NCBI GenBank assembly: GCA_003518055.1
Contig: DOZJ01000006.1
Location: forward strand, 43,837 to 107,836
DNA: 64,000 nt
Reading direction: 5' to 3'
DNA from: Candidatus Falkowbacteria bacterium
GTDB lineage: Bacteria > Patescibacteriota > Patescibacteriia > UBA11705
Positions 7,329-62,224 of the stretch are shown one piece after another. The notes below the pieces were generated by a model. The model did not search any database and was not told the DNA's origin. It saw nothing but the letters and a program-made list of their open reading frames with translations. Position numbers and translations under genes: made by a program. How positions within the stretch are numbered: position 1 is the first letter of the stretch; each line of letters begins with the position of its first letter.

Positions 7329-7530
7329 TTGCTGCTGAGCTTGACGGCTTATAGAGGCTGCTTCGTCTGGCAGTTAATGGAGGCTGCCACGCCTGCCTGC
7401 CGGCAGGCAGGGAGTTACTGCGTTGAGGCGAAGATCGAAGCCGGGTGGAGGCTGCCGCGGCGTTACTGCGTTGAGGCGAAGATCGAAGCTGGGTGGAGGC
7501 TGCCGCGGCGTTACTGCGTACGCCTCGCAG
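7329..7530. repeat. GC-rich element between ABC ATPase and permease genes: 20-bp palindrome (7392-7411) followed by 2.3 tandem copies of a 48-bp unit (GTTACTGCGTTGAGGCGAAGATCGAAGCYGGGTGGAGGCTGCCGCGGC)
   Basis: direct inspection; spurious minus-strand ORF 6943-7533 is repeat-encoded. Confidence 0.75.
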
Positions 7531-19466: not shown

Positions 19467-20297
19467 TCACAGAACGATTTTCATGCCTTTGATGGGCGGC
19501 ATGGGGGCGTATTGTTTTTCCAGTTTATCAACGATTTCATAGACCAGACTTTCATCACCTTGTTCCGCTCGGGCAAAATATTCCGGCTGGGCTTCGAAGT
19601 AAATCGGCGAGTGAGTGTTGTTCCGCTCAACCAATTCCCAAGCGTGTTCATAATGGATGTCGTAGATGTGCGCGTTGCTGATTGAGTGGGTTAATTTGCC
19701 GGGCTGGACGCCAAGCCGAGCGGCCAGAATACATTGGAGGAGAGCAAAGCCGGCCACATCATGAGGGCAGCCGAGCATCATATCATTGCTGCGAACAATG
19801 CTGTGTATATGGAGTTTGTTGCCGATAATGTTGGCGGTCCAGGTGTACGGGCAGGGGACATTTTTTTTGGTTTCCGGATTACCGAGTCCATCCTCGCGCG
19901 GATCCCAAGTAATTACAACTCCGTGGCGAGAGCCCGGGCTGTCTTCAAGATGTTTGATCAATAATCCCAGTTGATCGCGGCCAAAGGCGCTGCGCCACCG
20001 ATGGCCATAAGCGGCCGGAATGGTGCCGTCTTGTTCCGTAAAAGCATCCCAGATTTTGGTGAATTTGCCGACAAACTCATCGGGTTTTTGGCTGCCCATA
20101 ATATACCAAATTTGTTCAGCGACAAAAATTTTAATCGGAATTTTTCGCAGGGTTAACAATGGAAAACCTTGATCCAATTCAAAAGTCAATCCGGGAATGA
20201 TTTTGGTGCTATGGCCGGTTCTCTCATTATACTCCTCAAATCCCTGATTCATAATCCGGAGGATGGCGTCTTTGAATTGTTGGTCGAATTGAGTCAT
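19467..20297 (-). CDS. thyA: thymidylate synthase
   Basis: PLLT.RK, VPCPYTW (active-site Cys), HIHSIVRSNDMMLG.PHDV, ISNAHIY motifs. Confidence 0.85.
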   Translation of the reverse strand: MTQFDQQFKDAILRIMNQGFEEYNERTGHSTKIIPGLTFELDQGFPLLTLRKIPIKIFVAEQIWYIMGSQKPDEFVGKFTKIWDAFTEQDGTIPAAYGHRWRSAFGRDQLGLLIKHLEDSPGSRHGVVITWDPREDGLGNPETKKNVPCPYTWTANIIGNKLHIHSIVRSNDMMLGCPHDVAGFALLQCILAARLGVQPGKLTHSISNAHIYDIHYEHAWELVERNNTHSPIYFEAQPEYFARAEQGDESLVYEIVDKLEKQYAPMPPIKGMKIVL

Positions 20298-20303
20298 GAG
20301 GGG

Positions 20304-20342
20304 GAGAGATTGAGAGAATTAAGAGATTGAGAGAATTAAGAA
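20304..20342. repeat. microsatellite (GAGAGATTGAGAGAATTAA)x2 immediately upstream of thyA start
   Basis: direct inspection; related array at 61733-61787. Confidence 0.6.
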
Positions 20343-22560: not shown

Positions 22561-22716
22561 TTTGAGTTAAAAAGTGTGTTAATTATATTTGAATGGTCTG
22601 ACTAGAAGCCACGACTGGGTCGTGAATCAGATTGTTTCATTTATATTAATAAATTAAAACTAATTAGAATAATGATTCTAACGTCTTGACAGCATGGTAA
22701 AAGACGTTCGAACTGA

Positions 22717-23262
22717 TTAGATCTGTCTGACTTGCAGGGGGTCCAGTTCAATCGGTGTTTCTCGTCCGAACATAGTCACCGCCACTTTGACTTTGCCTCT
22801 GGTCTGATCAACCTCGTCGATGCGGCCTTCATAATCTTTGAATGGGCCATCGGTAATTTTGACCGGAGTGCCGGGAGTCAGTTCAATCGCGACGGTCGGC
22901 TCTTGGACACCCATACGTTTTTGCAGGGCTTGAATTTCTTGGTCGGAAATCGGAGTCGGGATGGTGCCGGTGCCAATGAAACCGGTGACATTTGGCGTGT
23001 TGCGAACCACATACCAAGAATCATCGGTGACAATCATTTCAACAAAAACATAACCGGGGAAGATTTTTTCCGTGACGGTTTTGCGTTTGCCGTTTTTGAT
23101 GCGGATTTTTTTCTCGGTGGGGATCATGATACCAAAAATTTTGGTTTCCATGTCCATGGATTCAATTCGTTGTTTGAGGTTTTCCGCCACACTTTCTTCG
23201 TGGCCGGTTTGCGTATGAATCACATACCACAGTTTGCCGCGTTCAGAACTTTGTTTTGGCAT
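22717..23262 (-). CDS. nusG: transcription termination/antitermination factor NusG
   Basis: KLWYVIHTQTGHEE NGN domain and C-terminal KOW (KITDGPFKDYEGRI). Confidence 0.9.
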   Translation of the reverse strand: MPKQSSERGKLWYVIHTQTGHEESVAENLKQRIESMDMETKIFGIMIPTEKKIRIKNGKRKTVTEKIFPGYVFVEMIVTDDSWYVVRNTPNVTGFIGTGTIPTPISDQEIQALQKRMGVQEPTVAIELTPGTPVKITDGPFKDYEGRIDEVDQTRGKVKVAVTMFGRETPIELDPLQVRQI

Positions 23263-23287
23263 ATATAATTAGTGAATAGTATAAAAA

Positions 23288-23479
23288 TTAAACGACCAAG
23301 CTGAGCAGGTATTGGAACAGCAAGTCGAGGCCACCGAGAAAAACGGCGACGCCCACGGATACGCTGATGACAATCAAGGTGTACTTGGTGGTTTCCTTTT
23401 TGGTCGGCCAAGTAACTTTGGTCATTTCAACTTTTGCTTCTCGAAGATAATTGAACAAACGGTTGTTTAGTACATTCAT
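23288..23479 (-). CDS. secE: preprotein translocase subunit SecE
   Basis: 63 aa, REAKVEMTKVTWPTKKET then single TM; classic position upstream of nusG. Confidence 0.8.
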   Translation of the reverse strand: MNVLNNRLFNYLREAKVEMTKVTWPTKKETTKYTLIVISVSVGVAVFLGGLDLLFQYLLSLVV

Positions 23480-23683
23480 ATTAAATAGTATCCGCGTGAA
23501 CTAAATGTTCAGCGGAGAAGCAAAAATAACGAAAACCAATGGTTTTGTAATGTTATTTTTTGCTTAAAATTAGGGATAAAATTATCTTAAAAAGCCCCAA
23601 AGGGCTAGTTTCAATATAATTATAGCATAAAATTATTTTCCCGCAAGAGTAATGGATAAAAATTGGGGATTGACAATGTCGGA

Positions 23684-23754
23684 TAATTTTGGCATGCTAT
23701 AGGGTTCAGCTGATCAGGCGGGACAGACCCATGCAATACCAAGGAGGAAGCAAG
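23684..23754 (+). promoter_or_regulatory. conserved ~70-nt leader element, copy A (TTTTGGCATGCTATAGGGTTCAGCTGATCAGGCGGGACAGACCCATGCAA...AAGGAGGAAG)
   Basis: ~85% identical to copy B at 24981-25050 although downstream proteins are unrelated; contains palindrome CTGATCAG. Confidence 0.55.
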
Positions 23755-24426
23755 ATGAGCGAGAAAAAGGTGGCATTAATCATTGGCGGAACCAGTGATA
23801 TCGGACAAGCGATTATAAAAGTTTTGGAGGTTGAGTATCAGATTTATTTTACTTATTTCAGTAATGATGAATTGGCGAAGAGGACCTCGGGCGTGGGTAT
23901 GCATTGCGATATCCAGAACATCCGGTCGATTCGGATGGTGTTTCGACAGTTCCCTAAGCTGGATCTGATGGTTACTTGCGCTTTTCCCTTTATTGAAAAT
24001 GATGTTTTGGAGTTTTCGAGTTATTTGGAAACTGAGCCATATCTTCGTGGTCATGTGGTGGCGGTTTGCGAAGCCGCCAAGAAAATGAACAGCGGCGGCA
24101 AGGTAATCAATCTTCTCGGGCAATGTGTTGATCGAGGGTTGGCCGGTGCTCCGTATTATGCGGCCGCGTATGCATATCTGCGGAATTTGGCCATGAGTAT
24201 TAACGCGAGTCATGGGCGAGCGGGTAGACTGTCGGTTCACGATATTCTTCTCGGACCGGTAAATACAAAACTGTGGCGAGGCGTGAGTAAGGAAGTTATG
24301 ACTCGCTATCGCAATCTGGTGGCGCGATTTATCGAGCCAAGGGAAGTGGCAGAAGCGGTGCTTTATATTGCTCGGTCAGAAATCGGTCCGACAACATTTA
24401 AACTTGATGCTTTTTACAGTTTATAA
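23755..24426 (+). CDS. short-chain dehydrogenase/reductase family protein (atypical, YxxxR instead of YxxxK)
   Basis: ALIIGGTSDIGQAI Rossmann motif; ATG 23755 behind AAGGAGGAAG RBS. Confidence 0.6.
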   Translation: MSEKKVALIIGGTSDIGQAIIKVLEVEYQIYFTYFSNDELAKRTSGVGMHCDIQNIRSIRMVFRQFPKLDLMVTCAFPFIENDVLEFSSYLETEPYLRGHVVAVCEAAKKMNSGGKVINLLGQCVDRGLAGAPYYAAAYAYLRNLAMSINASHGRAGRLSVHDILLGPVNTKLWRGVSKEVMTRYRNLVARFIEPREVAEAVLYIARSEIGPTTFKLDAFYSL

Positions 24427-24452
24427 CACTACCAGAAACAGGGGGGAACAAA

Positions 24453-24944
24453 ATGAAAAAGAGAGTGGATTATACTAATGGCAAAGAGGTCGGGGCGGTT
24501 TTGGACAAAGATTCGGGTAAGCTCGGAGCAATTGAAAATTTGACGAGATTAAATGAAAAAGTTGTGGTCATGCTTGGGTGGTATGCAAAATTTCTTTGCT
24601 TTTGTTCGTATACGGTAGTGCAGAAAATGGTTGAATTTGCTCATGATGCAGAAAAGGATATCCCGTATATTCAGCTAGACTTGTTATTTGCATTTGAAGA
24701 ATTCCGCAGTCAAGAACCCATTTTAGCCTCATATACTCGTAGCGAATTATGTGATTGGGCAGGAGAGGAAAAGTTCGTTAATGATTTGACACAGGTATTA
24801 AACGAGAATTATTTGGCCGATACCAGATTTCGAGTGCGGGTAATCTCGTGGATTAATAATACTGGTGGTTTGCTGAGGGTAAGTATTACAAAATGGAACG
24901 CTGAATCGCCGCTGGATTATTTGTCGATTGGCAATGTTTTTTGA
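24453..24944 (+). CDS. hypothetical protein
   Basis: 163-aa ORF, GGGGAACAAA RBS-like, no motif. Confidence 0.4.
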   Translation: MKKRVDYTNGKEVGAVLDKDSGKLGAIENLTRLNEKVVVMLGWYAKFLCFCSYTVVQKMVEFAHDAEKDIPYIQLDLLFAFEEFRSQEPILASYTRSELCDWAGEEKFVNDLTQVLNENYLADTRFRVRVISWINNTGGLLRVSITKWNAESPLDYLSIGNVF

Positions 24945-24980
24945 AAATAGATAATGGATAAAAGTTGGAAATAAACAAGG

Positions 24981-25050
24981 CTGAATAATTTTGGCATAGT
25001 AAAGGGTTCAGCTGATCAGGCGGGGCAGACCCATACAACAACAGGGAGGA
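24981..25050 (+). promoter_or_regulatory. conserved ~70-nt leader element, copy B
   Basis: TTTTGGCATAGTAAAGGGTTCAGCTGATCAGGCGGGGCAGACCCATACAA...AGGGAGGA. Confidence 0.55.
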
Positions 25051-25425
25051 ATGATCGTGACTGAAAAGCGGTCAGAGGTGTTGAATGTGGCGGTAAAGAC
25101 TAAAGACGCGGATGGACGAGTTAGGTCGTCGAAAATTTTGGGTTTGATTATTTATGATGATCGGACGGTGCAAGTTTGTGCTCCGATGGCAAATGATTGG
25201 CGCGTCATTTTGGGATTGGTTGGTTTGGCTAGACGGTTGGAGGGGCGATTGTCAGAGTATTATCTTGAAAAAGGTGAAACACTGAATACCCGGATCGTGT
25301 TGGAGGAAATGAAGCTGGTTGTTCGATCGGTGATGGCTTTGAGTCTGTTTAGTCTGTACCGTTTACCTGATGATGGTACGGCTGAGTTGGTTTTTGGGTT
25401 AGCTGATTGGCCAAATTTGTTTTAG
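25051..25425 (+). CDS. hypothetical protein behind duplicated conserved leader
   Basis: 124-aa ORF, GGGAGGA RBS; C-terminal ADWPNLF. Confidence 0.4.
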   Translation: MIVTEKRSEVLNVAVKTKDADGRVRSSKILGLIIYDDRTVQVCAPMANDWRVILGLVGLARRLEGRLSEYYLEKGETLNTRIVLEEMKLVVRSVMALSLFSLYRLPDDGTAELVFGLADWPNLF

Positions 25426-25533
25426 GTTTGAATCAAGAAATCTAAACTGAGTGAACCAACTCAGTTTTTTGATCCTTGCGTCTTTGGTAAAAATAATTTA
25501 AGATAAATAATTCCCACCAAGGCGGAGGAATCA

Positions 25534-25914
25534 ATGTCTTATCGAGATGATAGTCAGCTGGTGACCATTGAAAATCAAAATAGAGTCTTGTTTGCCATAT
25601 ATGCGAAAAAGAATAAACGAAATCAGGCTGAAATCACTCATATTGAAATGGCGGAATTTGAATCGGTTGATTGGTTGACTTGGACATCTCTTACAGAATT
25701 TATTAATCGAGTGAAGTCGGCTTTGGAGACGCAGGTGGCGAGCGCAGATCTTAATTTGGCGCTTGTGGTTGATGATGTCCTTCGACGTGCAGGGTTGCAG
25801 TTTCGCGTGAAGCGAGAAAGTAACGGATACAATTCATTTAATTGCCGCAATGGTTCTTGGTGGAAGGTTTTTTATCCCAAAACAGGATCGGAGGATGCCA
25901 ATGAAAATGTTTGA
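25534..25914 (+). CDS. hypothetical protein (C-terminal NGSWWK)
   Basis: 126-aa ORF; GGCGGAGGAATCA RBS. Confidence 0.35.
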   Translation: MSYRDDSQLVTIENQNRVLFAIYAKKNKRNQAEITHIEMAEFESVDWLTWTSLTEFINRVKSALETQVASADLNLALVVDDVLRRAGLQFRVKRESNGYNSFNCRNGSWWKVFYPKTGSEDANENV

Positions 25915-26323
25915 TCATGAACGTGGCATTTATATTCACTATGGCCGGCCATATTGCGGCGCGTCCGGGGTATCGAAAATTGAAATCGCGGTTGATCTTG
26001 TGGCAAAAAAATTGAAAATCGTTAAGATTAATATGGAAGCTTGTAGTGATGAATGTCGATCGAGGGTGGATGCTTGGTTGGAAGAATTGGCGGTGGGGGT
26101 GGTTGATTGGAGATTTTCCGTGGTGGTTGAATCGCTTGTTCGGCGGTTGAAAGCGATTGAGGTGTATTTCAGCCATCAGTTTTGTACCTTGGGTAGTGTT
26201 TTGTATGTTAATGCGACAGACCGGACAGCTGAACCTGATGATGAACACGAATGTGTGATTATCCTCAATGATATGTTGAACGATCCCTGGTGGAAACGGC
26301 TGCCGGAAGGGGGTGATCAATGA
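25895..26323 (+). CDS. hypothetical Cys-rich protein with C-terminal HECVIILNDMLNDPWWKR motif
   Basis: start after GGAGG RBS; tandem paralog of next gene by shared C-terminus. Confidence 0.45.
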   Translation: MPMKMFDHERGIYIHYGRPYCGASGVSKIEIAVDLVAKKLKIVKINMEACSDECRSRVDAWLEELAVGVVDWRFSVVVESLVRRLKAIEVYFSHQFCTLGSVLYVNATDRTAEPDDEHECVIILNDMLNDPWWKRLPEGGDQ

Positions 26324-26751
26324 CACGGTGTGAAATTGTGATTTCATTTGGCGCTCAGGGCAAGCGGTTGGGGCAGGAGTTGTCGGTATTTGACTTTATC
26401 GTTACGCGCAGTGCGAAATTTTTCGTTGATGGAAATGGCTGGACATTTGTTGAACTTGACGCGAATACCGGCAGTCAAGATAGCCGCAAAGAGAATCAAC
26501 GGGCATTGGAAATTCTGGTGAGAAAGCTGAATGAAAAATTCGGAGTAAATCCCGATGTTGGATTTGAAAATTTGGTGAAGCAGATCTGTGAGGAGATTGA
26601 TGAACGGTTTAATCCGCGGGCGGTCTTCATGCCGAATGCGTGTCCGCCTTTGTTTTCGTCTCGCGTCACGCCGCCTGATAGATGTACGCATTGCCTGATC
26701 ATGCTTAGCGATACACTGGCTGACCCATGGTGGCGTCCGTGGGCTGAGTAA
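26320..26751 (+). CDS. hypothetical Cys-rich protein with C-terminal THCLIMLSDTLADPWWRPW motif
   Basis: start overlaps previous stop (ATGA); shared 15-aa C-terminal motif. Confidence 0.45.
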   Translation: MTRCEIVISFGAQGKRLGQELSVFDFIVTRSAKFFVDGNGWTFVELDANTGSQDSRKENQRALEILVRKLNEKFGVNPDVGFENLVKQICEEIDERFNPRAVFMPNACPPLFSSRVTPPDRCTHCLIMLSDTLADPWWRPWAE

Positions 26752-26755
26752 AATA

Positions 26756-26780
26756 AACTGCTTAAAAGAGCAGTTTTTTT
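26756..26780 (+). terminator. intrinsic terminator (AACTGCT-TAAAAG-AGCAGTT-T7)
   Basis: hand-folded. Confidence 0.65.
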
Positions 26781-26787
26781 GTTATAA

Positions 26788-26816
26788 TTGACAAAATTGG
26801 ATATTGCTGGTATTAT
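26788..26816 (+). promoter_or_regulatory. sigma70-type promoter TTGACA-17-TATTAT
   Basis: near-perfect consensus, downstream AGGAGG RBS. Confidence 0.6.
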
Positions 26817-26850
26817 TTGAAGTCAAAACCTCAAACAACTAGGAGGCGGC

Positions 26851-27417
26851 ATGAAACCGAATCGAGGTGAAAGAGTCTTGGCACTGGCGTATGAGCTTTG
26901 GAAGTTGATGAGTCGAGAGACGGATGTTTGGGCTGAGGCTATTTTTGATTGTGAGGAGCAGCTAGCTGTTTATTTGTCAGAGTGTCTGCATTTTCAAGAG
27001 TTTGGACCAAACGTGATTACGGCGGGCTGGAAGAAGGTGGCTCAGGATGCGGGCTCGAATTATCAAATCCCCGATGAGATTTATTGTGATCCTCGGTTGC
27101 AGAGCGCGCTGGATAGTGAGGCTTCGAATGATTTTTACAATATTACGGTGGTTGATATTGATGGCATCAAACGGATGTTCAACGGTGATATTCCTTTTTT
27201 GGCTATTCTTCCGCTTGATGATGAAATCATGACCAGCCTGTGGGGGCTTTATTCCGGGGCTGAAATGCATGATTGTCTATTGGCGGCTTTGACTGAGTTC
27301 AATAAAAAGAATTCGTGTCTCCGAATTGAATTTGCTGTTTTTCACGGAGAAATGGATGACCAAGGTTGTTTGATTCTGGCGTTCAATGATCAGGCTCGGT
27401 GGTTTTATAAGATTTGA
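26851..27417 (+). CDS. hypothetical protein
   Basis: 188 aa behind perfect promoter 26788-26816 and AGGAGG RBS; ends ARWFYKI. Confidence 0.45.
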   Translation: MKPNRGERVLALAYELWKLMSRETDVWAEAIFDCEEQLAVYLSECLHFQEFGPNVITAGWKKVAQDAGSNYQIPDEIYCDPRLQSALDSEASNDFYNITVVDIDGIKRMFNGDIPFLAILPLDDEIMTSLWGLYSGAEMHDCLLAALTEFNKKNSCLRIEFAVFHGEMDDQGCLILAFNDQARWFYKI

Positions 27418-35761: not shown

Positions 35762-35905
35762 CTACCCGCCTACGCTCTTACTTCCACCTACGCATAACGC
35801 TTATGCCTTCGCTAAAGCTATGGCATACAGGTCGGTGGACAGGGCGTAGAGCTACGGCGCCTGCCTGCCGGTAGGCAGGGGCGCGGCGGAAGTTTGGCGG
35901 GGTAA
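35762..35905. repeat. GC-rich dispersed repeat copy (CTACGCTCTTAC...GTAGAGCTACGGCGCCTGCCTGCCGGTAGGCAGGGGCGCGGCGGAAGTTTGGCGGGG)
   Basis: shares >40 nt with 1831-1880. Confidence 0.7.
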
Positions 35906-43974: not shown

Positions 43975-44337
43975 AATTATTTCCTGTCCTTTAGGGCGGG
44001 GAGTCGAGCTCAGCACCCGGGCTACTGCCTGCGCTGAAGCTTCGGCAGTCAAGAAAGCCGCGGGGAAGGGTGAATTTTCCCTGTCCTTTAGGGCGGGAAG
44101 CCGAGTTCAGTACCCGGGCTGAAGCCACGGGGAAGGGTGAATTTTCCCTGTCCTTTAGGGCGGGGAGTCGAGTTCAGCACCCGGGCTACTGCCTGCGCTG
44201 AAGCTTCGGCAGTCAAGAAAGCCGCGGGGAAGGGTGAATTTTCCCTGTCCTTTAGGGCGGGAAGTCGAGCTCAGTACCCGGGCTACTGCCTGCGCTGAAG
44301 CTTTGTCAGTCAAGAAAGCCGCGGGGAAGAGATTATT
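43975..44337. repeat. tandem array, 4 copies of ~100-bp GC-rich unit (one copy with ~33-bp internal deletion) in prfA-prmC intergenic region
   Basis: unit GAATTTTCCCTGTCCTTTAGGGCGGGGAGTCGAGCTCAGCACCCGGGCTACTGCCTGCGCTGAAGCTTCGGCAGTCAAGAAAGCCGCGGGGAAGGGT repeated head-to-tail. Confidence 0.85.
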
Positions 44338-44349
44338 ACCGGTTGATAT

Positions 44350-45411
44350 TTATTTTTCTTGCAGGCTAGTTTTCTCGGCGGCGGTTTTGAGGGCGGTGAT
44401 GATCGGTTCAATCTGGCCGTCCAGAATTATCGGGATGTTGTTCCAGCTTTCTTTGATGCGGTGGTCGGTGATGCGATCCTGAGGGAAATTATAGGTGCGG
44501 ATTTTTTCGCTGCGATCACCGGTGCCGATTTGAGATTTGCGGGCGGCGCCTAATTCTTTTTGGCGTTTTTCTTCCTGCAATTCAAATAGCCGCGTGCGCA
44601 GAACTTTCATGGCTTTGTCTTTGTTTTGAAGTTGAGAGCGTTCATCTTGGCATTGCACCACGAGACCGGAGGGTTCATGCGTAATGCGTACGGCGGATTT
44701 GGTGGTGTTTACGCTCTGGCCACCGTGGCCGCCGGCGCAAAAGGTGTCGATGCGCAGATCCTGAGGATCGATTTTGACATCGACGTCTTCGGCTTCAGGC
44801 AGTACCGCGACAGTCACGGTTGACGTGTGGACTCGGCCTTGTTTTTCCGTTTCCGGCACGCGTTGGACTCGATGGACGCCGCTCTCATATTTTAAATGGC
44901 TAAAAACTTTGTGACCGTTGATTTCAAAGATAATTTCCTTGAACCCGCCGATGCCGATTTGGTTTGAAGACAAGATAACCAATTTCCAGCCTTGGATTTC
45001 GGCGTAGCGGGAATACATTCGAAACAATTCAGCGGCAAACAACGCTGATTCATCGCCACCAGCGCCGGCGCGGATTTCCACGATGACATTTTTGGCGTCG
45101 CGGGGATCTTTGGGCAGGAGGGCGGATTTGATTTCGGCTTGGAGGGATTCGATTTTCGGCGTTAACTCATTGATTTCTTGTTCGGCTAATTCGATTAAAT
45201 CAGGGTCATCAGCTTCGAGGGTTTTTTCAGCGTCAACTAGGGCCGCTTGATATTTTTCAAGCAGAACAATTTGATCATAAGTGGGTTTGAGCTCAGCATG
45301 TTCGGTGGATACGGTGCGTAGTTTGGCTGGATCAGAAAGAACTTCGGTGGATTGAAGCTGAGTTTCCAGATTGAGAAATTTTTCTTTGAGTTGTTGGGTT
45401 TGGTTGGTCAT
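44350..45411 (-). CDS. prfA: peptide chain release factor 1
   Basis: [19 protein letters not shown] tripeptide (PxT), RF1-type. Confidence 0.9.
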
Positions 45412-47443: not shown

Positions 47444-50400
47444 ATGGTGAAGATGAAAAAAAGGTTGGTGATATTAACCGGAATATTATTTATTTTTGTT
47501 TTTGGCGTAAGCTTTTTTTTAATTGATCGGACGGAGGCGTTGGTAACAAATGGCGCGAACGCGGTCAATCTGGTTGGACAGTATAGTGACGCGGGTGCGG
47601 TTGATTATACAAAGTCGGGAATCAATAATGGTCCGAATAATGAGGGGGTGAACACGCCGAATTTTTCGATTTTGGATGAACAAAATGATATATTTTTTGT
47701 TATTGATCAGGCGAATAATCGAGTGCTCGGTTATCAAGTGGATGCGGGGAATAATTTTGTTGATTATCAAGCCGATTATGTTCTCGGTCAGACGGATTTT
47801 AGCTCGGCGGATGAAGCAGATTCAGCCACGCAAGCAAATTTTTCCAATCCGAGCGGCTTGGCGATCGATCAGGGTGGCAGTAGGTTATTCGTGGCTGACG
47901 CCGGATTTAATCGAATTTTGATTTTTAATACTGACAGCATCGCGACCAACATGAATGCCAGTTTTGTTTTGGGGCAGGCTAATTTTACCGCGTCTGAGGC
48001 GGCTACGACGCAGGCCGGTTTGAGTTCACCGGAAGGGATTCATTTTGATGAAACTGATAACTTGTTGTATGTCGCGGATAAGAGCAATAACCGCGTTTTG
48101 ATTTACAGCGTGGCGGTCGGGACGGTTTCTAATGGTATGACTGCGTCGTATGTTTTGGGGCAGGCTAATTTTGTAAGTTCAGGGGCAGCGACTACTGCGG
48201 TGGGCTTGTCTGGTCCGACTGATGTTGATTACGCGAGTGATAATGATCATTTGTTTATCGCTGATGAAGGTAATAACCGAGTGATTATTCATAGTATTAC
48301 TCTGGAAGCTCCAATTGCTGACGGCCGGACGGCTGACAAGGTGTTTGGCCAGAGCAATTTTACATCTGGTGGCACTGGTAATGGGGCGGATCAGTTCAGT
48401 TCGCCATTTAGTGTGGCGGTTGATATTGCGAATGATCGGTTGTTTGTGACTGATCATGGTAACACGAGAATTCAATCTTTTGAGATTGCCACGATTGACA
48501 ACACGGAGAACGCGGCTGCTTCTTTGACTAGCATGACATCAAAAGCTCTGTTTTACATGGGTGTCAATGAATCGTTGGTGGTTGGTGAGCTTGAAGAACA
48601 TCGGGTGGCGAGGTATGACGCGGTGGTTTTGACACCGGGAGAATCGCCGGTAGAGGTTATTGGTCGAGTTGATGGCAGCGGCGATGATATTATTTCGGCT
48701 GATAATAACGCTAACAACGGCGCGAATAAATTGGGTTTGAGTGTTATTGGTGGAAGCGCGATTGATACCACCAATCATAGATTATTTGTCAGCGACACCA
48801 GTCATGATCGAGTTTTGGTTTATAATTTGACCGCTGGTGATATTTTGGCTGATTATACGCCGGATAATATTTTGGGCAAGACGGATTTTTATGACGCCAG
48901 CCAGACTGTTGTGACAGGATTGAATCCAGAGCAAAAAATTACTCAGCCCGGAGCTTTGGTTTATGAACAAGATACAAATTATTTATATGTGGCTGATAAT
49001 CGGCGGATTTTAGTCTTTAACGCGGCCAGTATTACTGACGGCGAGGCGGCGATAAATGTTTTGTGTCAAACCGCGTTCGCGAATATGGTTGACTCAACGG
49101 GGCAGGCTGAATGTTCGTCAGTCTCGGGTTTGGCCATAGATGAAACCAATAATCGATTGTTTGCTTCAGACGCCAGTGTCAGCCGCGTGATGGTTTTTGA
49201 CGTGGCGGAAATCGTTGATGGTGAAAACGCCACATATGTTTTGGGTCAGGGGCATTTCGGTGGTAGCGGAGTGGCTACGACTCAAGCAGGTTTGTCGGCG
49301 CCGAAAGGGTTGGCGTATGATTCAACGCAGGAGTATTTATTTGCCGCTGACAGCGGCAATAACCGAGTTGTTGTATATGATGTGGATACGATTTCCAATG
49401 GCGAAGACGCAGCCGCGGTTTTGGGGCAGGTTAACTATACTTCGTCCGGGGCTGATACGGATCGTAATTCTTTGAGTAATCCTTCGGCCGTTAGTGTCGA
49501 TACTAGCAATGGGCTGCTTCATGTGGCTGATACCACTAATAATCGGGTATTGTTTTTTGATGTTAATACTATTGCCAATGGTGAGTCGGCTCAATATGTT
49601 TTGGGCCAAAGTGGTTTTACAACCGCTACGGCCGCGACCACCCGGGCCGGTTTGAATACGCCGACAACGATTACTTTTAACTCTGGTTCGGATCGGATTT
49701 TGGTTGGAGATTCAGTCAATTATCGGATTATGGCGTTTGACGCGTCAATGACGACGAATAATGATCCAGCAACTCCGACTTTGAGCTCTCCGGCTGATTC
49801 AGCTGCCAGTGTGGCGATCAGACCGACGTGGCAGTTCTCGGCCACCGACGCTGATTCTGACGCCTTGTATTATGAATTGGAATTATCGGATACTACGACA
49901 TTTTATAATGTATTGTATCGGTTTGATTTGCGTGAAGATTATAAAGGATGGTCTCAGGTGTCAGCGTATGATTCTGGGGCTAGCGCGTCATTTATTCTGC
50001 CGGTCGGGGCAGCGCTTTCAACCAACACGACTTATTACTGGCGAGTGAGGGTGATTGACGTTCAGGGCGGCGTGTCGAGCTACAGCTCAGTGCGCAGTTT
50101 TACCACGGTGGATAATAGTACCACGGTTGATTACGCGGACACATTTGACAGCTCGGCTTATTTGGATACAACGAATACTACCGCGAAATATTATGATAAG
50201 GAAAATATTTCTATCCCCGCCACCTTTACTATAGGTTCGGCCGCAGCTATGTTCGGGGCGGGGGAAACAGTCGCGATGGTGGCTTTTGACGCGGATAATG
50301 ACGGTGATATCGATGTGGCGGTAAAAAATGAAGCTGGCACTACTAGTACCGTTTATATGAATAACGGCTCCGGAGTTTTTAGCGGCGGTGATACGCTCAA

Positions 50401-53400
50401 CGATTCAGTGGAGTCGGACAGGGCTTATATGGAATTTTTGTTCGCGGCCGATGTGGAGCTTGATGGTGATTTGGATATATTGGATCGTGACGGTTATATA
50501 TATACAAATGACGGCAGCGGTAATTTTACGGCGACAGACGGTCCTGATACTGGCGCGATTGGTGATTTTAATAATGATGGCTATATTGACGTGGTGGAGC
50601 CGAAGGCTGGTGGTGAGACAAAATTCATTTATATTAATGACGGCGAGGGTAATTTTACGGCGCTGAGTCCCAATCCCTTCGCGGATATTTCGGCGGACGT
50701 GATAAGTGATGCGTATGTTTTTGATATTGATCGCGACGGTTGGCTTGATATTGTCACGAATAATCAGAGCGGAACCAGCCGATTGTTTTTGAATGATGGG
50801 GATTTGACTTTTACTCAGAGTACACCGTGGGCAGCGGCAAATCTTACAAGGGTGGAGTTTGCGGATTTTGACGGCGACGGAGACATTGATTTGTTTGGAT
50901 TGCATCAGGGAATTGGTAAGGGTGTGTGGTTTAATGATGGCACAGGGTTGTTTTCGTCAAGAAATGCGGTTTCGACTGATTGTTATTTCCAAAATTTACA
51001 TTCGGTGGACTTGGAGGGTGACGGTGATCAAGATGTTTTGTGCGCGAGCGGAACCGCTACGAATTATTATTTGAGAAACAAAGGAAATGGAACATTTGAA
51101 ACTCAGGTGGCGGCTTTTGGGTCCAGCGGCACCTCAACTATCATTACCGCAGACGTTGATGGCGACGGAGATCAGGATGTTTTGGTTGGTAATGGTGATG
51201 GTGGTGAGAACCCGGTGGTCAATATTCAAAATTATTTATACAAAACAAGCGCGAATAGAATAATCTCGGCGACAGCTTTGGATGCGGATACAAATGTCAG
51301 GGCGGCTTTTGATTCAGATAATGACGGTGATGTTGATTTGTTTGCGACCGAGACGGAAAATGATTCAGGGCGTTTGTGGATCAATGATGGCGACCAGTCG
51401 TATACCGAACAAACGGGGTTTTCGGATTATGTATCCACGTTAGAGGCCGCGGATGTGGATGGTGATGGAGATCTGGATATGGTAGAGGGGCTTAATGGTT
51501 TTAGTGATAAATTGTGGCTTAATAACGGCTCCAATTCATTTACCAATATGGGGACGTTGTTTGGCGCCAATGATTATAACGCCACAGTAATCAAATCCGG
51601 AGATGTGGATAATGATGATGATATTGATTTCCTCTTTGTGTATGAATCTCAAATTCCAGAGATTTGTTTAAATGATGGCACCGGGTTGGTTTATACTTGT
51701 TCTAACGTGGATACATCAAGTTCGGATACCCGGACAGGGGCGGATTTTGGCGATGTGAATAAAGACGGTGTATTGGATTTGGTTATTAATTATGAATCAA
51801 ATGTAGTTAAGGTCTATACCGGTGATGGTGATGGCACATTCACCAGTTCGGCGACAATTTCATCGGATAATGGTCGTCTGGATTTGGGTGATTTGGATAA
51901 TGACGGGGATTTGGATTTTTTGGTTGGCACCGGCACGCCCGGAATGACAGCGTATTTGAACAACGGCAGCGGTAGTTTTGAATCCGGAGTTTCGATCACA
52001 ACGTGCGGCAACCGCGGATATTCTTTGGTTGATATGAATCGTGATGGCAAATTGGACATCTTGATCGCGTGCAATTCGGGGAATTCTCAACTGTGGGAGA
52101 ACCACGGCTATATGAGTTTTGTGAAACAGGCGTCATTGCTGGCTGACGGCGGCACAGTTAAATATTTTGTCTCAGCTGATTATGATCTTGATGGGGATAT
52201 GGATGTTTGGTCGGTTCGAGATGAGGCGGGCGCGGAAAACGGCTATCGTTTTGATCAAAAACAAACATATACGGCCAGTACGGAGTATTTGGTTTATTCG
52301 GGGACGATTGACACGGCGGTGGCGGCGAATACGTTCAAATCTGCAATTTTGTCTTCTGATGATTATACTCCCAGCGGAGCGAGCATTTTGTATTATATGG
52401 CCACTCAAGGGGCTGATTATCAATGGCTTGTAAGAAACGTAGGGACGACAGCTAATTTGTACGCCACGGCAGTCTATGGCTCCGTTGATGAGGCGGCTTA
52501 TGGCGATGTGGTCGGATCATCAGGGGTTTATTACAGTACGGCGGATACCGGAGCGACTTGGTCGAATACGAATTTTGGGATTACTGAGACGATTTTTGAT
52601 ATTATTGCGGTAGTTGAGGATGCGCCTTTATTTGTCGGGGCGAGTGGTTTGGTTTATGACGCCGGTTCAGTCACGGAAACTTGTTTGTCTGGAGAAGTTC
52701 GGATTACTGGTAATAATTTAAATGATTTATCAAATTATGTGTCGGGTGAAACGACCAAGGCGTACGCGGTTGGATCCGCTGGCACGGCTATTGGAATCGA
52801 TTTGTCCGGTTATCCAACGATTGCGTGTTCGGCCCTGACTACCGGCGTGGCAACCAATTTGAACGGAGTCGATATTATTGCGGGTGATCAGACAGATATT
52901 GTGACTGTTGGTGATCGGGTTGATGGCGGCAATGGTTTGATTCTGACGTCGACTGATAATGGTGCCAATTGGACGGTCCGAGCCAGTGGAGTGGCTCAAA
53001 ATTTGAATGCAGTTACGGCCGATACGGCGTCCGGTTTGATGATTGCTGTTGGCGATGGTGGTACAATAATCCGATCCACCGATTCCGGAGTGAACTGGAC
53101 AGGCGTGACTTCTGGTACGGCAGAAAATATCAATGATGTTATATTTAAATTTGAAGATTCAACAGAAGTTTGGGCGGCCGCTGATAACGATAAAGTTTTA
53201 TTGAGTACTGATTCAGGCGTAACTTGGACTGTAATCAGCACCTTATCCGGCGTCGATTGGTATGCCGTGGCTGAAAAAGACGGAGCGGTGTTTGTGGCCG
53301 GAGAGGCCGGCAAGATGATTGTCTATGATGATTACGCTATTTCATGGGAGGGACCGATTGTGAACGGTAATAATTTGAATTTTGGCGATGCTGGAACCAT

Positions 53401-56400
53401 CTTGCAGTGGAAGGCGGTCATGACAACAACCAATGTGAATAATCCGCCGTTAATCAGGGCGATGACCATAGATTACAATACAACAGTGGTGGGCGGTTCA
53501 AGCCAGCCAGCCACACCGGATGAGGAACCGGTCCAAACAGCCCCGACCGCTCCGGCGGTTGGCAGCGCGGTGGTTCTGTCGGCTGATTCGATTCGATGGA
53601 CATTTACCGATACGTCAAATAATGAAACCGGGTTTCGACTCTATGATGAAAACGGAGTTTTGATCAATCAGGTGGCGACAGCGAATTTGAGTTTTATTTT
53701 GGAAGAAACTTTGACACCGAATACCAGATATAATCGGTTTGTCACTTCATATAATGATAGTGGGGAGAGCGAAAGGGTTGATTTGGGCGTGTTTTATACT
53801 CTATCAGCTCAACCGGTGATAAATAATATATACGTGACATCTGACACTTCGGTAGCGATGGAGCTCGGTGAAAACGGCAATTCGGCTGATACTTTATATG
53901 CGATTTATGAAACCGTTACCAATCAATGGGTGCAAATAAACGGCAAGTTAGGAACTGGACGATTTGATCGAACATATGCTTCTTGGGTGGATAATGGGGT
54001 TGTGCCGATTGTTGATCTGATGAATGGTCAGGAATATGTTTTTTCGGTGGTGGCCAAAAATAGCGCCAATCAAGATTCTCAATATTCAAATTCATTTACG
54101 ATAAAAGTGACCAGACCCATCGGGGCTAATGTGGTAGCAACGAAAAAGGTGGGTATAAACTCGGCGGACGGCGATAATTTTGCTCAGGGAATTTTCTTTG
54201 GTACGCCGGTATACGCTTACGGCGGCCGAGCGCAATTGATCAAGACGTTGCCGTTCTTTTCCGAGGTAGCCAATGGTTATTTGGTTGGGGCAATTATCTT
54301 TTTGATAATCTTTATTATCGGTTTGATTTTTAACTCAGCTGATAAATGTGCTTGGTCTGAACGGCTTAGCCGGTTTAGACATACGCCAAAAATTATTTTT
54401 AGCGATTGGCGGTCAAAGCGCGGCGATGATGTTTATGAAATATTAAACGGTCAGAGTGAACCAAAGCTTGGAGACAAATACAAGAAACATCATCGATTGT
54501 ATCGATATACTGGCTTGACGATGACCTGTCTTGTGGTGGGAGTGATTTTGAAAGTGGTGATTGCCGGTTTGATTTTGGTTTTGCTTTATACTAATTTCGG
54601 TGTTCAAGCTTTTACCAATCAAAGTGGAGAGCCGGTGTTTTCAGGTGATGAATTGGTGTATCACATTGAATATGTTAATAACGGTCAGGCGGCAGCGGAA
54701 AATTTGGTGATTACGGATAACCTGCCTCAAGGAACTTCATATATAGTTGGAAGCGTAAATCTTAACGGCCTAGGTCAAACTGATACTGTCGGTGATGATA
54801 GCTGTTCGGCGGTGGCGGGGCATATTGAGTGCCGGGTCGTTTCTCTCGGAGCCAGTGGATCCGGATATATGGAATTCAAGGCCTTGGTGACGGGTGCGAT
54901 TGATGAGGCGGTGATTAATTTCGCTTCAGTTAATTATACTGGATTAGCTTCGCCTCGATCGTCAAATTCAGTCACCAATGTAATTGCCGAGATGCCGATT
55001 GCCGAATGCGCGGATGGAGTTGATAATGACGGTGATAACTTGGTGGATTATCCCCTTGATTATGGTTGCGTGGATGAGAGTGACACCAGTGAGAATTCGG
55101 ATATATTTATTGATCAGGGTCAGGTGGTTGATGTCAGCCTTACCGGAGATTGGAGATATTTCAATATGATGGAAACGGCGACCGCCAGATTTATTCATCG
55201 AAGCGCTTCACACCAAGTAACTCTCATGAATGCCGATAAGGTTGGCAATAAAGTCACATTAATGGTTCAAAGTGCTCCGATAACTGTGAATGTGGCGACT
55301 GGAGGCAATGTTCAGGTCGATACCGATGCTAATGGGGTAAATGATCTTGGTTTGACAGTCTTGGCAGTGATTAGCGAGGATCAAGCGGTGGTTGGATTAC
55401 AAACCATTACCGAACAAGTGTATCAATGCAACGATGGATTGGATAATGATAGTGATGGATTGATTGATTTTGGTGCTGATCTCGGCTGCTCGTCCGCAAC
55501 AGATAATGTTGAATATACCGCCCCTGTGATTCCAGAAGATGTGCCGGAAGAAATACCGGAAGAAATTCCGGAAGAAATACCAGAGGAAACTCCGGATGAA
55601 ACCACGGATAGTACGACTGAGTCCAGCGGTGGTGTTTCTGAATGTAATGATTTGGTCGATAACGATGGTGATGGATTGATCGATTATCCGACTGACGGCG
55701 GCTGTTCAAACGCGTCTGATACCAGCGAGGTTGATGAATTAATTCCAGATAACGTAATTGATACAATTGAAGATTCCCTTGATGATATTAACACGCAGAT
55801 TGATGATTTGAATCGGAGACTTGAGGAGTCAGATTCAGTAACTGAAACAGTTGCTTTGAGTATTGAGAAAACGACAAAACAAATACAAATGATTTCGGTT
55901 GAGACAGCTCAAACCGTGGTGCAGTCAGTGCAGTTTGTCAATGAAAAAGTCTTGAATAATCCGGCGGTAGAATCCGCGACGGCCAAAGCGGCGGCGCCGA
56001 CCATGATAACTTTTACGGCTTTAGGTATAGCTAATGTGGCCACGGCGACTGCCACAGCCGGAGCTGGAGCAGCCAGCGGGTTTGGCGTTCTGACTTATTT
56101 GCAGTATTTTGCAGTTCAGCCGCTGCTCCTCTTCACGCGGAAAAAACGCGAGCGTTGGGGGGTCGTGTATGACGCGATTACCAAACGGCCGGTGCCTTTG
56201 GCGATTGTTAGAATATATGACAAGAATACAGGACGGATTATCGGTACCAAGGTGTCGGATCAGAGTGGTCGTTATCAGTTTATAGTTGATTCGGGTGAGT
56301 ATTATATTGAAATATCCAAAGATCAATATCGATTCCCGTCAGAAATTTTGTACGGGCAGGAGCAGGATGAGAAATATTACGGCTTGTATCACGGTCAAAC

Positions 56401-61706: not shown

Positions 61707-61732
61707 CTGGGCAGGCGTTTTGAAAAAGATAG

Positions 61733-61787
61733 TGAGAGAGAATTGAGAGATTGAGAGAATTGAGAGATTGAGAGAAGTAAGAGAATT
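61733..61787. repeat. microsatellite ATTGAGAGA x ~6 in the long leader between promoter 61678-61706 and tRNA-Asp
   Basis: direct inspection. Confidence 0.6.
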
Positions 61788-61849: not shown

Positions 61850-62110
61850 TTTGGATTTATGCGCCATAGGACGCATCCCTGCCTACCGGCAGGCAGGTGT
61901 CCTTTGGCAGAGAATTTAAAATTTAATGTGGATCGGTGGTGTAGTTGGTTAACACACCTCCCTGTCACGGAGGAGATCACGGGTTCGAGTCCCGTCCGGT
62001 CCGCCAGCCTACGCTCTTACTGCGTAGAGCTTCGGCTGGCGAGCCAAAGTTAGCGATTCATTTTACTTTGTAGAGCTTCGTCTGCCTGCCGGCAGGCAGG
62101 GTTGGAAAGT
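61850..62110. repeat. GC-rich dispersed repeat copies flanking tRNA-Asp (palindromes at 61878-61897 and 62081-62100; CTACGCTCTTACTGCGTAGAGCTTCGG at 62010-62036)
   Basis: same family as 1800-2050, 35762-35905. Confidence 0.65.
61930..62006 (+). tRNA. tRNA-Asp (anticodon GTC), CCA encoded
   Basis: hand-folded cloverleaf: acceptor GGATCGG/CCGGTCC, anticodon arm CCTCC-CTGTCAC-GGAGG, T-arm ACGGGTTCGAGTCCCGT, discriminator G + CCA. Confidence 0.85.
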
Positions 62111-62224
62111 CACCTAGAGATGGGTGTTTTTTTGTTTTAAGTAAAAATTAATTTACATTTTTTGTGATTGGTCATTGTTTATTTGTTATTAGTTATCTTA
62201 TGCACAAAGGGACTAAAATTAGTT

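Follow-up and report, generated by a model that had tools for sequence, protein, structure and literature searches.

Why is nearly the same non-coding sequence found in front of two genes whose products are unrelated? The question is raised by a locus between secE and gyrB in an uncultured groundwater bacterium, a Falkowbacteria-like member of the Patescibacteria (CPR). An earlier note on this DNA had described a shared leader of about 70 nt and about 85% identity, and had proposed that it is either a cis-regulatory RNA (riboswitch or attenuator) or a common operator for a repressor. We have analysed the locus within a 64-kb stretch of DNA (here called the window) and in related genomes. The features discussed below are listed in Table 1.

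Table 1. Features of the two repeat copies and the adjoining genes (positions are those of the window)
Feature	Position	Strand	Basis or remark
Repeat copy 1: promoter, 5′ UTR and SD, before the SDR-like gene	23650..23749	+	putative ancestral position
−35 box TTGACA, copy 1	23670..23675	+	aligned with TTGACA of L027 and L031
Extended −10 TGgCATGCT, copy 1	23690..23698	+	predicted transcription start ~23704–23706
Double palindrome TCAGCTGATCAG (TCAGCTGA overlapping CTGATCAG), copy 1, candidate operator	23706..23717	.	
SD AGGAGG, 7-nt spacer, ATG 23755 of SDR-like gene	23742..23757	+	sequence
Gene A, divergent SDR-like protein, 223 aa	23755..24426	+	Pfam adh_short / adh_short_C2
Gene B, orphan, 163 aa	24453..24944	+	no family match
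Repeat copy 2, 83% identical to copy 1, between genes B and C	24952..25051	+	
Degenerate −35 box TAAACA, copy 2	24972..24977	+	
Extended −10 TGgCATAGT, copy 2	24992..25000	+	predicted transcription start ~25006–25008
Double palindrome TCAGCTGATCAG, copy 2	25008..25019	.	
SD GGGAGG, 7-nt spacer, GTG 25057 of gene C	25044..25059	+	sequence, copy alignment
Gene C, orphan, 122 aa	25057..25425	+	no family match
Terminator-like hairpin closing the gene C unit	25444..25467	.	

Extent of the repeat

The similarity is real, is not due to chance, and extends further than first described. It is a direct repeat of 100 nt, the copies of which lie 1302 nt apart, align without gaps and are identical at 83 of 100 positions; the part seen at first (23683–23749) differs from the second copy by 8 mismatches in 67 nt (88% identity). 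The shared leader of the earlier note is thus genuine as a similarity, but its extent was given too small, and about half of the full 100 nt is promoter. Searching the window for a 29-nt core gives exactly two occurrences, and 100 shuffles give none. Identity inside the repeat is 14–19 per 20-nt bin, and directly 5′ of it falls to background (1–8 of 20), where the flank of copy 2 is gene B coding sequence. The bins 3′ of the Shine-Dalgarno site stand at 9/20 and then 7/20, and from about 15 nt beyond the start codons the two copies are at background. The first 11 coding nucleotides of genes A and C match at 8 positions (MSEKK versus VTEKR), which may be chance.

A segmental duplication that included coding sequence was considered and rejected: the similarity ends about 15 nt past the starts, and BLASTP between proteins A and C finds none. 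The lack of similarity accords with the earlier statement that the two proteins are non-homologous, and a cis element shared by unrelated genes, lying outside any larger coding duplication, is what the locus contains.

The core had also been called conserved. Its two occurrences are not due to chance, and its conservation does not significantly exceed that of the other repeat positions (p about 0.1–0.2). The longest perfect block is 22 nt (p = 0.17 in an expected-length test with 17 mismatches placed at random over 100 nt), a stretch of 32 nt with at most 1 mismatch has p = 0.11, and the distribution of mismatches along the repeat is consistent with uniform decay.

Probable promoter and 5′ leader

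In both copies an A-rich stretch comes first and is followed by a −35 box and, across a 17-nt spacer, an extended −10; a 5′ UTR of ~50 nt then leads to a Shine-Dalgarno site. The best promoter common in register to both is TTGACA-17-TGgCATGCT in copy 1 and TAAACA-17-TGgCATAGT in copy 2, from which transcription is predicted to start at ~23705 and ~25007. Copy 1 lies at the promoter position of the first gene in the variable secE–gyrB island, and its TTGACA aligns with that of TTGACA-17-TATAAT and TTGACA-17-TAATCT at the loci of two relatives (L027 and L031, respectively). A GTTCA motif, conserved at the position of the start site, is equally distant from all three −35 boxes, and the alignment holds the distance from the conserved secE-side flank as well. 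This upstream flank (23560–23649) is conserved in relatives at 55/67 and 49/67 ungapped positions and includes the divergent secE promoter; the island promoter and the secE promoter stand back to back.

Since copy 1 occupies the position of the relatives' canonical island promoter, the repeat is best read as a whole expression module. It shares with the relatives' sigma-70 island promoter the TTGACA, the 17-nt spacer and the −10 register, with a TGn before the −10 here. It differs in its weak −10 hexamers (CATGCT and CATAGT), in being present twice, and in a leader that is ~20 nt longer and carries a double palindrome. The −10 hexamers match the consensus at 3/6 and 4/6 positions and the −35 of copy 2 at 4/6, so copy 2 may be a poor promoter, and the real start may lie elsewhere than predicted.

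Gene C had been given a start at ATG 25051, a codon only 1 nt past the Shine-Dalgarno site of copy 2. GTG 25057 aligns with ATG 23755 and gives both copies the same 7-nt spacing, and is most likely the true start; one public gene call (122 aa) also begins there.

Genes behind the repeat and the secE–gyrB island

Gene A has only five homologous clusters, itself aside, at E ≤ 1e-10. Gene B finds itself alone among 1.84 billion representative proteins, the homology search with gene C likewise returns only gene C, and neither has a family match. No terminator-like site was found between genes A and B and copy 2. Gene B is probably co-transcribed with gene A, and with no terminator in between, read-through from the copy 1 unit into copy 2 is probable too. 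Three SDR homologues elsewhere (43–54% identical) were examined and have no such element upstream. These three adjoin an NrtR-like regulator or NadE.

The island itself is highly variable. The set of genes at this site differs among relatives, whose islands contain counterparts of genes E, F and G and none of genes A to D. Where NusG is 84–93% identical, island orthologues are only 23–41% identical. Terminator modules have been duplicated locally in the relatives' islands, and in one assembly of the same species an IS6-family transposase gene abuts position 23586. Copy 1 is identical to the orthologous promoter of a relative with 93% identical NusG at 20 of 39 positions, most of which belong to the −35 box and the start-site motif. 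The repeat element is absent at the loci of relatives with 79–93% identical NusG.

Search for further copies

No third copy was found in the window plus a further 10 kb of the same genome (together ~74 kb, out of a contig that is at least 354 kb long), and a search for a degenerate one upstream of genes D or G gave only SD-like or marginal similarity (p about 0.04–0.09). Beyond these ~74 kb a dispersed regulon is conceivable. A covariance model (R1) was built from both copies and searched over the window, the 10-kb extension and 15 related loci (310 kb in all). It returned the two known copies and one match of 14.5 bits (E = 0.26), which lies inside a 62-aa DsrE-like ORF remnant and was judged to be chance. 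Further or covarying copies, for which the earlier note had advised such a search, are thus absent from these ~74 kb and from the relatives' loci. An exact 19-mer, scanned against 596 Gb of genomes and JGI metagenomes, gave chance matches only, with unrelated flanks or in high-GC contexts, and these scans are uninformative on other copies in this genome since the source organism's own copies were also not returned. Two patterns searched against viral contigs and a blastn search of phage records came back empty, and a literature search on Falkowbacteria promoters found nothing relevant.

Proposed origin and function

We consider it probable that the repeat is a duplicated sigma-70-type promoter/leader module, with a strong Shine-Dalgarno site, in a hypervariable island of mostly orphan genes. 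RNA polymerase would recognise the −35 and then the extended −10 located 17 nt downstream, and the short leaders would present AGGAGG and GGGAGG 7 nt before ATG 23755 and GTG 25057, respectively. Copy 1 would drive the SDR-like gene together with gene B, and copy 2 would give gene C a start of its own in a unit that the terminator-like hairpin would close. Copy 1 would be the ancestral island promoter, and copy 2 would derive from it through local duplication or recombination, an event recent enough to postdate the separation from the closest relative sampled; this order of events is our reconstruction from the sequences. Such a duplication would have put lineage-specific genes behind the same promoter. 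The duplication appears to be young, given 83% identity between the copies against 20/39 between copy 1 and its orthologue in the relative whose NusG is 93% identical. The 83% identity would be most simply explained as common descent that has yet to decay, possibly with gene conversion as well, and not as constraint on an RNA structure.

Promoter-bearing intergenic repeats of several types are known in bacteria (Correia, BOX, RUP, REP, MITE). Like these and like integron attC sites, the present repeat is a short non-coding unit beside varied genes in a variable region; unlike the intergenic repeats, it has two adjacent copies only and neither terminal inverted repeats nor target duplications, and unlike attC it is placed 5′ of the genes, whose promoter it contains, with no integrase found in the island. 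A MITE/REP/Correia-type element or an attC site was rejected on the missing terminal inverted repeats, the presence of only two copies, 1.3 kb apart, in the ~74 kb searched, and the lack of an integrase domain in the island proteins.

The double palindrome

The earlier note had pointed to a perfect palindrome, CTGATCAG, in the core, and it is indeed present in both copies. It overlaps a second 8-bp palindrome, TCAGCTGA, to give the 12-mer TCAGCTGATCAG, at about +2 to +13 relative to the predicted start. The 64 kb contain a single further overlap of two 8-bp palindromes. The 12-mer is found nowhere in the window beyond the two leaders, nor at the relatives' loci even with 1 mismatch allowed. 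It falls within the ~20 nt that are missing from the relatives' leaders, and this extra stretch hints at an added function beyond that of a plain promoter.

Alternative explanations

A regulatory RNA, whether riboswitch, attenuator or RNA thermometer, would have the leader fold (for example as GGGUU...GACCC) and control both genes. Like the riboswitches and leader RNAs of Rfam, the repeat is a conserved non-coding stretch that precedes unrelated genes and ends at a Shine-Dalgarno site; its 3′ half is the better conserved (5 mismatches in 49 nt), one CCC run could be contested by two GGG runs, and the two copies allow a consensus stem of 5 + 3 pairs. It differs from those RNAs in family match, stable or covarying structure, expression platform and phylogenetic spread, none of which it has. 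The gathering-threshold scan of the window with Rfam 15 found tRNA only, and a permissive scan (E ≤ 10) of 23400–25700 gave no match over either copy. Several intervals were folded, among them the predicted UTRs and the leaders of the relatives; the folding energies were no better than those of shuffles (z from −0.84 to +1.27), and the minimum-energy folds differ between the copies. RNAalifold predicts 8 pairs, none of which varies between the copies, and the covariation term is 0 (low power with two sequences). The GGGT...ACCC stem noticed earlier can thus be drawn, but its pairs do not vary and the predicted transcription start lies within its 5′ arm. The palindromes cannot form intramolecular hairpins since the loop would be <3 nt, no terminator separates the element from the start codons, and there is no conserved helix that would sequester the Shine-Dalgarno site. 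Model R1 finds no copies in relatives, and the SDR homologues elsewhere do without the element. The earlier note had itself held that the absence of further copies and of covariation would count against its proposals; both were found to be absent, so the riboswitch or attenuator is refuted to the extent that the data allow, and we regard an RNA switch of any kind as very improbable. A coding function on the minus strand is harder still to credit. ORFs at 23620–23742 (40 aa) and 24886–25041 (51 aa) share the motif PPDQLNP..CQNY, the frame is open in both copies, and on the minus strand a hairpin and a T-run come after the copy 1 ORF, so a small protein might be imagined. The mismatches fall 8/3/6 at codon positions 1/2/3; with third positions not enriched and most changes altering the amino acid, this pattern is not coding-like. 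Both ORFs begin with TTG and have no Shine-Dalgarno site, their lengths and C-termini differ, the second overlaps gene B, and the hairpin is part of the conserved secE leader. We therefore think a minus-strand protein extremely improbable.

The double palindrome bears on a different proposal, that TCAGCTGATCAG binds a dimeric repressor or a roadblock protein which co-regulates the two lineage-specific transcription units. Repressor operators such as lacO1 and the LexA boxes overlap the transcription start or sit just downstream of it, and the dyad at both promoters, which spans about +2 to +13 from the predicted start, has this classical position. Its perfect dyad symmetry, in two overlapping palindromes of a kind with one other example in 64 kb, and its location in leader sequence missing in relatives also speak for an operator; the site is identical in both copies, although this identity is not independent evidence since the copies are related by descent. 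Here the likeness to the lacO1/LexA type ends, with no cognate regulator found nearby and no independent third site in the window or at the relatives' loci. The core shows no significant excess of conservation over the remaining repeat, a DNA-binding domain was found in none of the seven island proteins, and the single-sequence structure models of B and C, of low confidence (pLDDT about 61) and too poor to assign a fold, yield no significant fold match. The 12-mer is missing from the relatives' loci, six other TCAGCTGA sites in the window have no common promoter context, and the spacerless overlap of 8-bp palindromes is closer to restriction/methylation sites (CAGCTG, TGATCA/GATC) than to operators of 14–20 bp. 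On balance a shared operator is rather unlikely. An operator would be compatible with the duplication origin, to which it would add a regulatory layer. The two copies could also be a recombination scar, direct repeats left when circular DNA integrated by a single crossover (Campbell-type); besides the SDR gene and gene B, the circle would have brought a homologous, ~17% diverged copy of the island's promoter-leader, and the leader would serve as a homology patch for gene gain. The layout of repeat, insert (SDR gene and gene B, 1.2 kb), repeat and resident gene is what such integration would give, the genes in the insert are lineage-specific, the island content of close relatives differs, and in another assembly the IS6-family element abuts the locus. 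Yet no recombinase, att-like site, terminal inverted repeats or target duplication was found, the composition of the insert is that of its surroundings, no contig bearing these genes has a donor or excised arrangement, and a simple tandem duplication with subsequent gene replacement is just as possible. Integration of this kind thus seems distinctly improbable. More generally, we hold it quite unlikely that the promoter-leader is anything beyond a passive duplicate, be it the operator of a regulator that would turn on the lineage-specific orphan genes or a homology patch for cassettes.

Implications

Read as a promoter/leader duplication, the locus records an ordinary event: one promoter and its leader were probably copied once, which left two unrelated, lineage-specific genes with common expression signals. 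It is a worked example that non-coding sequence shared in front of unrelated genes need not be a riboswitch, and that alignment of orthologous flanks can tell promoter from leader. If the palindrome were an operator, it would be a first handle on regulation in organisms with almost no known regulatory sites, and if the homology patch were true, newcomers to the island would arrive with, or land behind, a ready-made expression signal. The secE–gyrB interval of Falkowbacteria-like Patescibacteria is a fast-evolving island with quick turnover of genes and regulatory modules, and it may interest researchers who study gene birth and accessory functions in CPR bacteria.

The duplicated unit

The leader similarity belongs to a 100-nt direct repeat, whose two copies are identical at 83/100 positions without gaps and are spaced 1302 nt apart. 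Identity is 14–19/20 in the 20-nt bins of the interior and at background on either flank, and a 29-nt core occurs exactly twice in the 64 kb and never in shuffled sequence. The leader of ~70 nt described in the earlier note is real (88% identity) but covers only the 3′ two-thirds of this unit. ATG 23755 of gene A (SDR-like), which follows copy 1, aligns with GTG 25057 after copy 2, each lying 7 nt past a Shine-Dalgarno (SD) site (AGGAGG and GGGAGG). Given the aligned starts and equal spacing, gene C most likely starts at 25057, as in one public gene call, and not at 25051 as first assigned. The first 11 coding nt of A and C agree at 8 positions (MSEKK and VTEKR), which may be chance; SDR homologs elsewhere also have Lys-rich N-termini. 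Beyond these nucleotides the genes and their proteins are unrelated, as had been claimed, and no repeat similarity was found further into either coding sequence.

For 17 mismatches placed at random in 100 nt, 22 or more consecutive matches are expected with p = 0.17, and a 32-nt stretch with at most one mismatch with p = 0.11. Neither is extreme, so a recent duplicate decaying uniformly, or a gene-conversion tract, could account for the uneven identity. The duplication is more recent than the divergence from the relative whose NusG is 93% identical and in which the orthologous promoter has become near-random.

Promoter and leader

When the secE-proximal intergenic region was aligned to its counterparts in relatives, positions 23560–23649 were found to be kept (55/67 and 49/67 identical, ungapped), and the repeat starts exactly where this block ends. 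In copy 1, TTGACA aligns with TTGACA-17-TATAAT and TTGACA-17-TAATCT in the relatives' loci L027 and L031, and in all three the same distance separates TTGACA from GTTCA, which is conserved at the position of the start site. Between these landmarks the orthologous promoters are essentially randomized (20/39 identical, landmarks included). When −35/−10 combinations held in register by both copies were scanned for without bias, the same promoter was chosen, TTGACA-17-TGgCATGCT in copy 1 and TAAACA-17-TGgCATAGT in copy 2. Together, the orthologous alignment and the scan therefore identify the unit as a promoter, start and 5′ UTR with SD. The promoter would occupy roughly the first 49 nt, followed from the predicted start by a 5′ UTR of ~50 nt with the SD at its end. 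That start would put the 5′ arm of the GGGT...ACCC stem at or before +1 and the double palindrome TCAGCTGATCAG at about +2 to +13.

Two neighboring promoters deserve mention. Within ~20 nt of the predicted secE start lies a 5-bp hairpin, AGCCC-UUUG-GGGCU, followed by a U-run; the block is kept in relatives, with a compensatory change from AGCCC/GGGCT to AGGCC/GGCCT in two of their loci (L031 and L036), and it is possibly an attenuator or 5′ stabilizer of the secE-nusG-rplK-rplA cluster. Preceding and overlapping the gene G promoter, TAATTGACAAAATTGGATATTG is similar to the 23 nt that open the repeat, TAATGGATAAAAATTGGGGATTG (p about 0.05); this could reflect an older, partial kinship with the repeat's upstream promoter sequence, or chance.

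Features of the window and of related loci
Feature	Position	Strand	Remark
Direct repeat, copies 1 and 2	23650–23749; 24952–25051		
−35 box TTGACA, copy 1	23670–23675	+	aligns with relatives' promoters
Predicted starts, copies 1 and 2	near 23705; near 25007		
Divergent secE promoter (TTGCGG, 16 nt, TGcTATAAT) and hairpin	23586–23646	−	conserved in relatives
Gene A	23755–24426		
Gene G promoter	26785–26816		TTGACA-17-TATTAT with TG
E, F, G and orthologs	25901–27417; L027 4788–8805; L031 7802–9146		
Hairpin pairs	L027 4744–4779, 5407–5442; L031 7458–7493, 7768–7803		
CCTGCCTGCCGGYAGGCAGG copies	1828–1878; 7383–7412; 35851–35901; 61869–61898; 62072–62122		families D4, D9
141-nt unit	43980–44381		family D1
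17-nt tandem unit	20287–20341; 61728–61782		family D5
tRNA gene	61930–62003		
3206-aa ORF	47444–57064		

RNA and operator readings

The earlier note proposed that the leader is either a riboswitch or attenuator or a common repressor operator. Every runnable test (Rfam, folding, covariation, terminator or SD helix, further copies) speaks against the RNA reading. No Rfam match over the repeat was obtained even at E ≤ 10; stability is not unusual, the energies equaling those of shuffles; the folds of the two copies differ; and all 8 pairs of the consensus fold are invariant, with zero covariation. Neither a terminator nor a conserved SD-sequestering helix was found in the leaders, and the palindromes cannot form hairpins because their loops are too short. 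The suggested covariance model, built from both copies, found no further site in the relatives' loci or across 74 kb of the same genome save one chance-level site inside an ORF. Searches with the exact core in genome, metagenome and viral collections gave only chance matches with unrelated flanks; as the source locus itself was not among the sequences returned, these scans bear on spread to other lineages and not on how many copies this genome has. The element is also absent near all three SDR homologs looked up.

An operator at the two leaders is possible. The overlapping palindrome pair is unusual, with one other such pair in 64 kb besides the leaders; it sits in ~20 nt of leader absent from relatives, at a position relative to the predicted start that is classical for operators. 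We nevertheless think it unlikely that the double palindrome acts in this way, since the two sites go back to a single one by copying, the island proteins show no DNA-binding domain, the 12-mer was not found in relatives' loci, and the remaining TCAGCTGA sites of the window have no promoter context. Predicted structure models of B and C were too poor for interpretation.

Other repeats in the window

The GC-rich perfect palindrome CCTGCCTGCCGGYAGGCAGG has five copies, some with a common 3′ extension, which have the appearance of a family of REP-like or terminator repeats. A 141-nt unit is present three times in the region where one minus-strand ORF ends and the following one begins; the copies are spaced 164 and 97 nt apart, and two of them match the reference copy at 97% and 72%. 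The 17-nt tandem unit GAGAGATTGAGAGAATT(A/G)AGA occurs at two distant sites, one close to a tRNA gene. The 3206-aa ORF, with internal repeats of ~180 and ~290 nt, is probably a giant surface protein.

A plastic island of orphan genes

The contig derives from groundwater metagenomes, and several assemblies contain identical DNA, among it a 354-kb contig. Among named organisms, NusG has its best relatives in Candidatus Falkowbacteria and other Patescibacteria. Four relatives, with NusG 93%, 84%, 82% and 79% identical, likewise have the order gyrB, variable island, secE-nusG-rplK-rplA, and island gene content is different in each of them. No counterparts of A, B, C or D were found in their islands, and B and C each match only themselves among billions of database proteins. 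Protein A has few homologs: at E ≤ 1e-10, 5.8 billion proteins contain five clusters besides its own, and in all members of this very small family (A, P0002–P0006) the canonical Lys of YxxxK is Tyr or Phe; two homologs adjoin NAD-related genes, an NrtR-like Nudix regulator (L005) and NadE (L008). E, F and G have orthologs in relatives' islands at only 23–41% identity, versus 84–93% for NusG next door; E and F are paralogs that share a C-terminal DPWW motif, and the family is evolving very fast.

Lineage-specific content, duplicated terminator modules in relatives and an IS6 junction show that this locus is plastic. Terminator-like hairpins of 36 nt occur in pairs (97% identical) in the relatives' islands, the pair in L027 flanking its two G-like paralogs, which shows that sister lineages also undergo local duplication of regulatory modules. 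On a contig of the same species from another assembly (L034, JGI 3300009285), 99.9% identical to window 22633–23586, an IS6/IS240-family DDE transposase gene (1–508) abuts 23586 in place of the island. The junction marks an insertion at strain level or else a break in the assembly at the island edge. The layout is repeat, SDR gene and B, repeat, C; tandem duplication with gene replacement would give such an arrangement, as would, equally, single-crossover integration through leader homology. Neither a recombinase nor inverted termini were found at the locus, nor an alternative arrangement in contigs carrying these genes, and composition is uniform across the insert and its surroundings. The feature is real but ordinary, a duplicated promoter and leader in a hypervariable orphan-gene island, and we infer that both units share transcriptional control through the same promoter.
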